The notes: generated from the sequence alone by a model not told the origin. A DNA stretch of 30,698 nucleotides from Escherichia coli (GCF_003334785.1 NZ_QOWV01000028.1), one strand, 5' to 3'; counted from the stretch's first letter, positions 6,454 to 6,643 are shown. Made by a program: numbers and translations.

Positions 6454-6593
6454 TTCAGTACCTCACGACTCGGACAAAATGTCGTTGCGCGCACAGTACA
6501 GCGCAACTTATTTTGTTAAAAACATGTAAATGATTTTTTATTGTGCGCTCAGTATAGGAAGGGTGTTTTCGGCTACAATCAAAACATGCCCGA

Positions 6594-6610
6594 ATGTGCA
6601 CCAGGTGCAC
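6594..6610 (-). promoter_or_regulatory. MhpR operator-like palindrome in the mhpA promoter region (minus-strand reading ggtgcacctggtgcaca)
   Basis: Direct reading of tandem GTGCAC hexamers forming an imperfect palindrome in the mhpR-mhpA divergent intergenic region; matches my recollection of the published MhpR binding site, which I cannot verify here. Confidence 0.55.
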
Positions 6611-6643
6611 CACGTTGTTTTAACTATAGAAATGTCAATTAAT

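Follow-up and report, generated by a model that had tools for sequence, protein, structure and literature searches.

Cyclic AMP-CRP activates transcription from class II sites centred at about -41.5, and from class I sites at -61.5 and farther upstream. A class II site in Pr, the promoter of mhpR, is one of the closest described counterparts of the inverted repeat GTTGCGC-N10-GCGCAAC in the mhpA-mhpR control region of Escherichia coli: it spans the left arm of the repeat and the larger part of its loop, has the TGTnn-N6-nCACA core and an AAA flank, and lies upstream of mhpR at the annotated distance, counted from the start implied by Park 2013. The two differ in their distribution, as the CRP site is found in Escherichia only, with the weaker half-site TGCCG in probably about 73% of E. 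coli genomes, whereas a hairpin occupies the place in five genera. As a putative RNA structure, the repeat resembles the hairpins of the ompA 5' untranslated region and engineered 5' hairpin insulators, with which it shares the arrangement of an autonomous leader hairpin upstream of an accessible Shine-Dalgarno sequence and the conservation of structure rather than sequence. Classical stabilising hairpins act at the 5' end, whereas the putative mhpA leader hairpin starts at +30 and is absent from some orthologous leaders. In bidirectional intrinsic terminators, as in the E. coli element, a GC-rich stem stands between an A-rich and a T-rich tract that are complementary to each other; the mhp element departs from them in its 10-nt loop, a gap of 3-4 nt before the U-run on the mhpA strand, the divergent rather than convergent orientation of the genes, and the lack of conservation of these features. 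The ArcA-P operator (Park 2013, PMC3798270) adjoins the hairpin, but ArcA reads TGTTA direct repeats 11 bp apart and an inverted repeat is not part of its motif. The operator of the IclR-family regulator MhpR, another perfect dyad, shares the spacer with the repeat; its sequence is unrelated, and it is conserved across Gammaproteobacteria whereas the second repeat is lineage-specific.

Compared with these systems, the repeat forms the centre of an interrupted palindrome of 43 bp that is mostly ordinary, in DNA already largely covered by annotated sites. The reading we prefer, with a probability of about 0.45, is dual use of one segment, as CRP-bearing DNA of the mhpR promoter and as a stem-loop in the mhpA leader with a buffering or stabilising role after transcription. 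The new part is modest: a lineage-restricted, structurally conserved, putative 5'-UTR stem-loop.

The analysed stretch of 30,698 nt, referred to here as the window, is the mhp-lac region of E. coli K-12 in the reverse orientation of the K-12 map (subtracting a window position from 374288 gives the K-12 coordinate). A segment of 290 bp around the repeat is 100% identical to K-12 strains and was found in 4,897 of 5,426 complete E. coli genomes. By open reading frames and RefSeq annotation, mhpA occupies 4789-6453 on the minus strand, with its ATG at 6453-6451; mhpR begins on the plus strand at an ATG at 6644, the RefSeq start in identical E. coli records. The divergent intergenic region between them, 6454-6643, measures exactly 190 bp, again by the reading frames and the RefSeq annotation of identical records. 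A longer MhpR of 315 amino acids from the ATG at 6530, present in the list of reading frames and in the older annotation P0001, was rejected because of 1-2 nt indels in other genera, the RefSeq start at 6644, and a published transcription start (6536) that lies downstream of that ATG.

The inner repeat has perfect 7-nt arms at 6484-6490 and 6501-6507, forming a stem of 7 bp, 5 of them GC, with a loop of 10 nt. The initial annotation had correctly recognised its sequence and perfect pairing, and had placed it 4 nt too far to the right, at 6488-6511; its distance from the mhpA ATG is accordingly 31-54 bp and not 35-58 bp. A second perfect 7-nt repeat, ACAAAAT / ATTTTGT at 6474-6480 and 6510-6516, brackets the first, and the two together make up a composite interrupted hairpin of 43 nt (6474-6516), which we describe on the minus strand. 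A mechanical antisense reading frame of 175 amino acids (5992-6519), lying within a GC-rich gene, ends at this hairpin.

Perfect 7-nt inverted repeats with loops of 3-12 nt number 47 in the 30.7-kb window, against 19 +/- 5 in mononucleotide shuffles, and at such a density a single one in 190 bp is not significant. The composite hairpin, in turn, folds at -19.0 kcal/mol on the plus strand (z = -3.7 to -3.9, with 0 of 200 shuffles as good) and at -16.7 kcal/mol on the minus strand (z = -2.6); no more than 0.16% of the 51-nt windows with a GC content of up to 45% in the 30.7-kb stretch fold as well. The composite structure thus exceeds chance, and the 7-nt repeat by itself does not. Rfam covariance models run on both strands of 6300-6800 gave nothing near a gathering score. 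That the single repeat is within chance is the first of several observations in favour of a palindrome without a function of its own. Under this explanation, CRP, a UP-like A-rich tract and the ArcA/-10 block would account for the conservation in E. coli, and elsewhere the palindrome would be a by-product of neutral processes, for instance template-switch 'correction' of quasi-palindromes, and of the complementary flanks that the genera share. We return to it below with the variation data.

The DNA role of the segment is largely documented. At mhpA/mhpR, the supplements of Park 2013 (PLoS Genet 9:e1003839; PMC3798270) record an ArcA ChIP peak (enrichment about 19), an ArcA box of 20 bits (ttgttaaaaacatgtaaa), an ArcA operator of three repeats at K-12 367744-367775 that runs from -23 to +9 of the transcription start, and a 23.9-fold increase of mhpR-lacI in an arcA mutant. 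In the window, this ArcA-P operator lies on the plus strand at 6513-6544; its three direct repeats, TTGTTAAAAACATGTAAATGATTTTTTATTGT, are conserved in all genera aligned, and it shares 4 nt with the outer right arm of the hairpin. Its coordinates and the published span put the mhpR transcription start used by Park 2013 (PMC3798270) at 6536 on the plus strand, by simple arithmetic. Relative to this start, the inner repeat extends from -52 to -29 and the composite hairpin from -62 to -20.

The Reg-Seq preprint (PMC12132413), citing Manso 2011 (Microbiology 157:593), gives mhpRp2 a CRP activator site annotated at -59 to -38, as in RegulonDB/EcoCyc. In stationary phase it reports an activator footprint there, with ArcA close to the -10/-20 region, and mass spectrometry on the mhpR promoter enriched ArcA and GalS. 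In another published study mhpR served as a CRP-regulated control; no mention of mhpR occurs in the supplements of Reg-Seq and PredCRP. Counted from the start of Park 2013, and provided that both sources use the same start, the annotated interval corresponds to the sequence AAATGTCGTTGCGCGCACAGTA at 6477-6498 on the plus strand, with the core TGTCG-N6-GCACA and a centre at 6487.5, or -48.5 from 6536, in agreement with the annotation. The same 22-mer was the best CRP-like sequence of the spacer in a consensus scan (7/10 in the core, 13/22 overall), and its quality is matched at only 1.3e-4 of window positions; the scan used the TGTGA-N6-TCACA core, and the lac CRP site within the stretch, at 9/10 core matches, served as the positive control.

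Within the hairpin, this 22-mer takes in the 3-nt bulge (internal loop), the left arm and the larger part of the terminal loop, and the right arm at 6501-6507 falls outside it. Since the centre of the repeat, 6495.5, lies 8 bp from the CRP centre, the palindrome as such is not a CRP palindrome. The ten CRP-like 22-mers that score best in the spacer have at least 5/10 core matches each, and none of them is centred on 6495.5. The CRP site of the mhpR promoter is reportedly centred at -40.5. Such a distance would fit a start at 6528 with the same CRP site, by way of the extended -10 element TGtTAAAAA at 6514-6522; if the start is at 6536, the distance leads instead to a site around 6495.5, the repeat's own centre. 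The absence of a 22-mer with that centre from the ten best favours the reading with the start at 6528. Under either start, the repeat sits inside the mhpR promoter and overlaps its annotated CRP site. The initial annotation had found the repeat assignable to no known factor, which no longer holds, as the CRP site located from Reg-Seq and the Park 2013 start covers its left arm and loop. The accompanying suggestion of a second regulator site survives in part: the DNA does carry a known CRP site, but the dyad of the repeat differs from the CRP dyad.

On the other side of the spacer, the MhpR operator palindrome GTGCACC-A-GGTGCAC occupies 6596-6610, centred at 6603; the palindrome attributed to MhpR is therefore present as first described, with its left boundary at 6596 instead of 6594. 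The motif GTGCAC-N3-GTGCAC is found exact upstream of mhpR in 82 of the 92 fetched loci, which belong to Gammaproteobacteria from Escherichia to Pseudomonas, Vibrio and Azotobacter, and in the whole window it has the one match at 6596-6610, even with one mismatch allowed. The lineage-specific second repeat is thus distinct from the MhpR-type palindrome, as had been proposed. MhpR is said to act from -58 and CRP from -95.5 relative to the start of Pa, the mhpA promoter. We take this geometry to place the Pa start at about 6545 on the minus strand, where it fits the sequence: the operator centre is at 6603, a CRP-like centre at 6640.5, and a -10 hexamer TATACT, conserved in all enterobacterial genera examined, at 6556-6551 on the minus strand. 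The CRP-like site, TGTCA-N6-ATGCA at 6630-6651, has 6/10 core matches and overlaps the mhpR ATG; its reported distance is the -95.5 given above. A Pa start downstream of the hairpin would be excluded by the universal conservation of the MhpR operator. The Pa and mhpR starts placed in this way are 9-17 bp apart, with transcription running outwards from both, and the two promoters would overlap physically. No match was obtained by a sigma-70 promoter scan of 6300-6800, consistent with both promoters being activator-dependent.

The mhpA leader predicted from this start is 92 nt long, with the hairpin at +30 to +72, the inner repeat at +39 to +62, the Shine-Dalgarno sequence GAGG at +81 to +84 and the AUG at +93. 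The GAGG (6462-6465, minus strand) is separated by 8 nt from the hairpin base that precedes it and by another 8 nt from the AUG that follows, and belongs to a block, GUCCGAGUCGUGAGGU, that is conserved across genera. The hairpin is therefore probably transcribed in the leader of the mhpA mRNA. Of the two locations first offered for the repeat, mhpA promoter or 5' leader, the leader fits, while the promoter is at 6545-6651; the option of a leader hairpin fits as well, given this position and the conserved hairpin potential. Disruption of the arms in silico leaves the accessibility of the Shine-Dalgarno sequence at 0.33-0.35, against 0.30 in the wild type, and deletion of the whole hairpin element lowers that of the AUG from 0.64 to 0.12. 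In these models the hairpin behaves as a module, and the accessibility figures would lend weak support at best to a buffering role; the small effect of disrupted arms speaks against it, as does the atypical distance of the hairpin from the 5' end. Two further ideas about the leader were rejected: an attenuation peptide, AUG-UUU-UUA-ACA-AAA-UAA (MFLTK), ending at the hairpin, which has no Shine-Dalgarno sequence and whose AUG is missing in Citrobacter, and an anti-Shine-Dalgarno function as a conserved property, since the loop sequence CCUCAC of Citrobacter, complementary to GUGAGG in the Shine-Dalgarno region, does not occur in Escherichia, Kluyvera, Raoultella or Klebsiella.

The flanks of the stem raise the question of an intrinsic terminator, which could be either an attenuator in the mhpA leader (the stem followed by GACAUUUUGU) or a plus-strand stop (the stem followed by UUAUUUUGUU) for antisense transcription that runs through mhpA towards the mhpR promoter. 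In E. coli an A-tract, a GC-rich stem and a T-tract are present on both strands, the plus-strand fold reaches -19 kcal/mol, and the Adams 2021 supplement contains a Rho-sensitive antisense transcript further inside the mhp operon. The plus-strand tail TTATTTTGTT follows the stem directly and the minus-strand tail is GACATTTTGT, but on the mhpA-sense strand the U-run stands 3-4 nt from the stem, and the 10-nt loop, beyond the 3-8 nt expected of an intrinsic terminator with an immediate U-tract, keeps the element from being called by a terminator scan. Uniform terminator criteria applied to 24 sequences were passed by 3 of 4 Escherichia on both strands and, on the plus strand, by two Kluyvera, K. 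cryocrescens and K. genomosp. 3, the latter with a marginal 5-bp stem; Citrobacter, Raoultella, Klebsiella and most Kluyvera fell short of them, though the hairpin persists there. The T-tract, moreover, is accounted for by the conserved ArcA/-10 block, and the Adams 2021 tables, which cover conditions in which mhpA is uninduced, list no 3' end near the hairpin. We regard a terminator as improbable. The lack of any 3' end or other RNA feature recorded at this place in Adams 2021 also counts in favour of a palindrome without a function of its own.

The preferred reading, with a leader stem-loop on promoter DNA, also draws on the comparison of related loci. We compared 80 loci with MhpR, taken from contigs of one genome per species, six loci obtained by protein look-ups, and 14 E. 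coli variants. The enterobacterial spacer alignment contains four strongly conserved blocks, namely the MhpR operator, the Pa -10, a TACAAT block and the ArcA box, and the segment matching 6481-6509 is not conserved in it. A hairpin is nonetheless found between the conserved Shine-Dalgarno block CTCGGAC and the TTGTTA block, whose strong conservation is explained by the ArcA operator, in Escherichia, Citrobacter, Kluyvera, Raoultella and K. pneumoniae, and the stems are unrelated: CAATTGC / GCAATTG in Citrobacter, GCGCGTTTG / CAAGCGCGC in K. georgiana, GTGCC..GCGTC / GACGC..GGCAC in Raoultella, and AAAUUGCCUG / CGGGCAGUUU on the mhpA-sense strand of K. pneumoniae. The last of these is a 10-bp stem with two G.U pairs that forms on the mhpA-sense strand only (-11.5 vs -5.8 kcal/mol). 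Edaphovirga, Pluralibacter and Shimwellia pseudoproteus lack the hairpin, and in them the TTGTTA block is closely followed by the start of mhpA. Entomohabitans, Shimwellia blattae and AP025685.1 carry a longer, different structured insert at the same leader position.

RNAalifold returned no structure for all genera taken together, as the variable segment cannot be aligned by sequence, and the column-by-column analysis was restricted to the Escherichia and Citrobacter subset. There, a common structure of 15 pairs has 86% of its cells paired, against 32-54% when the partners are slid; double changes occur at two pairs, from G-C to A-U and from C-G to U-A; the covariation score was reached by 5 of 500 shuffles; and 16 G.U cells on the mhpA-sense strand stand against 1 A.C cell, which would be a G.U on the other strand. 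These counts overstate the independence of the changes, because the sequences are phylogenetically related and the independent events are few. They offer moderate support for pairing that may have been kept by compensatory and wobble changes across species, and we infer that base pairing, and not the sequence, is under selection. Folding energies do not point to one strand, with 11 species favouring plus and 12 favouring minus, and two Kluyvera species have wobble pairs on the plus strand. Taken without the conserved flanks, the variable cores are weakly structured, with a mean z of -1.3 on the minus strand and -0.8 on the plus strand; the conserved arms could owe their conservation to DNA-level reasons, the UP-like A-tract and the ArcA/-10 box.

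The same comparison bears on the possibility that GTTGCGC-N10-GCGCAAC is the operator of a second dimeric regulator of mhpR or mhpA. The dyad is perfect and its centre, 6495.5, lies at -40.5 from the start at 6536, and the enrichment of ArcA and GalS in Reg-Seq mass spectrometry suggests that other proteins may bind nearby. The arm sequences, however, are not kept outside Escherichia, where complementarity alone persists, which is the signature of a folded strand and not of protein-DNA recognition. The 10-bp spacing also puts the 7-bp half-sites an atypical 17 bp apart, and the motif could be assigned to none of the known E. coli factors. A second operator is therefore highly improbable.

Within Escherichia, variation falls mostly outside the pairs. 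Among 10 Escherichia sequences, 1 of 28 paired positions is variable, against 7 of 15 unpaired ones (Fisher p = 0.0013), and in eight further E. coli haplotypes the hairpin changes only at 6482, 6500 and 6509, all unpaired. The loop GCACA at 6491-6495, the right half-site for CRP, is invariant in Escherichia and the other loop bases vary, a pattern that fits a double constraint, on CRP binding and on a putative fold. The 92-bp leader departs from the K-12 sequence at one position or more in about 73% of E. coli genomes. K-12 has T at 6482, which gives the stronger CRP half-site, and this type makes up about 27% of complete E. coli genomes; all 13 fetched haplotypes of other types have C, and with it the weaker TGCCG. 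No CRP-like 22-mer is present at the position of 6477-6498 in Citrobacter, Kluyvera, Raoultella or Klebsiella.

The case for a palindrome without its own function draws on the same data, since the CRP and ArcA annotations already cover the region, the GCACA half-site is the invariant part of an otherwise variable loop, folding shows no consistent strand preference, the z-scores of the cores are weak and the hairpin is dispensable in several genera. It has more difficulty with the arms. The right arm at 6501-6507 is nearly invariant although the CRP 22-mer does not reach it, and the left arm falls in the spacer between the CRP half-sites, whose bases the protein leaves unread. Nor does it readily accommodate the difference in polymorphism between stem and loop, the recurrence of hairpins with unrelated stems at the same place in genera without the CRP-like sequence, or the 16:1 asymmetry of G.U cells, which is not expected of a DNA-level or neutral palindrome. 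On balance we place this explanation on the unlikely side.

The dual-use reading can be stated as follows, with structure, position and conservation computed and CRP and ArcA binding taken from the literature. As DNA, the segment would serve as the upstream half of the mhpR promoter, carrying the CRP activator site, with the ArcA repressor operator starting in the outer right arm. As RNA, it would be made from the MhpR- and CRP-dependent Pa and fold into an autonomous stem-loop that ends 8 nt before the Shine-Dalgarno sequence. The stem-loop would act after transcription on the mhpABCDFE mRNA, most likely in a buffering or stabilising role. The first 30 nt of the leader are rich in A and U, the ArcA box and the mhpR core promoter having fixed their sequence; the stem-loop would keep the ribosome-binding region apart from them and could limit decay in the 5'-to-3' direction. 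Both its transcription and its effect on the mRNA are steps that we infer. A stronger version, in which the segment is a bifunctional DNA/RNA module that joins the CRP-dependent element of mhpR to a selected regulatory stem-loop in the mRNA, such as one at which an RNase or an RNA-binding protein would dock or process the transcript, is clearly unlikely; if true, it would mean that the evolution of the segment is constrained at once by protein-DNA recognition and by RNA pairing.

The significance of these observations is limited. They tidy the map of the control region by placing the palindrome on an annotated CRP site, beside the ArcA operator, in the mhpR promoter and in the putative mhpA leader. 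The T/C difference at 6482 suggests that catabolite control of mhpR, and read-through into lacI, may differ between strains. The different insert in Entomohabitans, S. blattae and AP025685.1 would suggest that a structured module shortly before the ribosome-binding site of mhpA is needed recurrently. A functional stem-loop in the leader would bring a post-transcriptional level of control to a pathway so far described only through MhpR, CRP and ArcA, and would provide a compact case in which promoter function and RNA structure both constrain one DNA segment.

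An ArcA operator at 6513-6544, as located by Park 2013 (PMC3798270), covers positions +2 to +33 of the inferred mhpA transcript and at the same time the core promoter of mhpR. By virtue of this placement, ArcA should block both divergent promoters, and the ArcA box is kept across every enterobacterial genus examined. The true start codon of mhpR is at 6644, and the product has 277 amino acids. An in-frame upstream ATG at 6530-6532 opens a reading frame (6530-7477) that would encode a 315-aa MhpR, a form given both by the ORF list and by an earlier database record (P0001); this start is ruled out by indels in other genera and by the published transcription start at 6536, as implied by the Park 2013 supplements. 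A bicyclomycin-sensitive, Rho-dependent antisense transcript within the mhp catabolic genes is recorded in the Adams 2021 supplement (K-12 369964, minus strand; roughly 4324 in the window, plus strand). As positioned there, it heads toward the mhpR promoter and lies outside the hairpin region.

The mhpA leaders of AP025685.1 (locus L087, 832-1115), Entomohabitans teleogrylli (L088, 828-1118) and Shimwellia blattae (L091, 887-1135) all carry a GC-rich insert of ~200-270 nt, which occupies the same position as the E. coli hairpin (6474-6516). The three inserts share conserved blocks, such as CTGACCCTACATCGC and CGTTCGGTG, and display predicted helices with some compensatory changes. No Rfam match was found for these inserts, which may be mobile or may form a previously undescribed leader RNA. 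Citrobacter loci (L003-L013), and only these, present CCUCAC in the hairpin loop on the mhpA-sense strand, perfectly complementary to the Shine-Dalgarno region GUGAGG ~30 nt further downstream; the loop could act as an anti-SD switch.

The MhpR operator is expanded in E. coli strain Z1323HEC0011 (NZ_CP148385.1; locus L081, 243-275, the counterpart of 6596-6613 in the window), where the unit GTGCACCAG has gone from two to four tandem copies. This 18-bp insertion creates three overlapping GTGCAC-N3-GTGCAC dyads and displaces the operator and the CRP site relative to the mhpA promoter Pa. The window's own operator, GTGCACCAGGTGCAC at 6596-6610 (K-12 ~367650-367690), is similar to the NtrC consensus half-site, TGCACC. 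Given this similarity, cross-recognition of the MhpR operator in vitro could explain the NtrC peak (88% intensity) detected in the mhpR/mhpA spacer by genomic SELEX (PMC8743547).

The 92-bp mhpA leader is the same as that of K-12 in ~27% of complete E. coli genomes. K-12 has T at 6482 (AAATGTC), the better CRP left half-site, while C at this position (AAATGCC) is found in 13/13 non-K-12-type E. coli haplotypes fetched and in three other Escherichia lineages. Judging from the half-sites, this polymorphism may underlie strain-to-strain differences in catabolite control of mhpR and of mhpR-lacI read-through.
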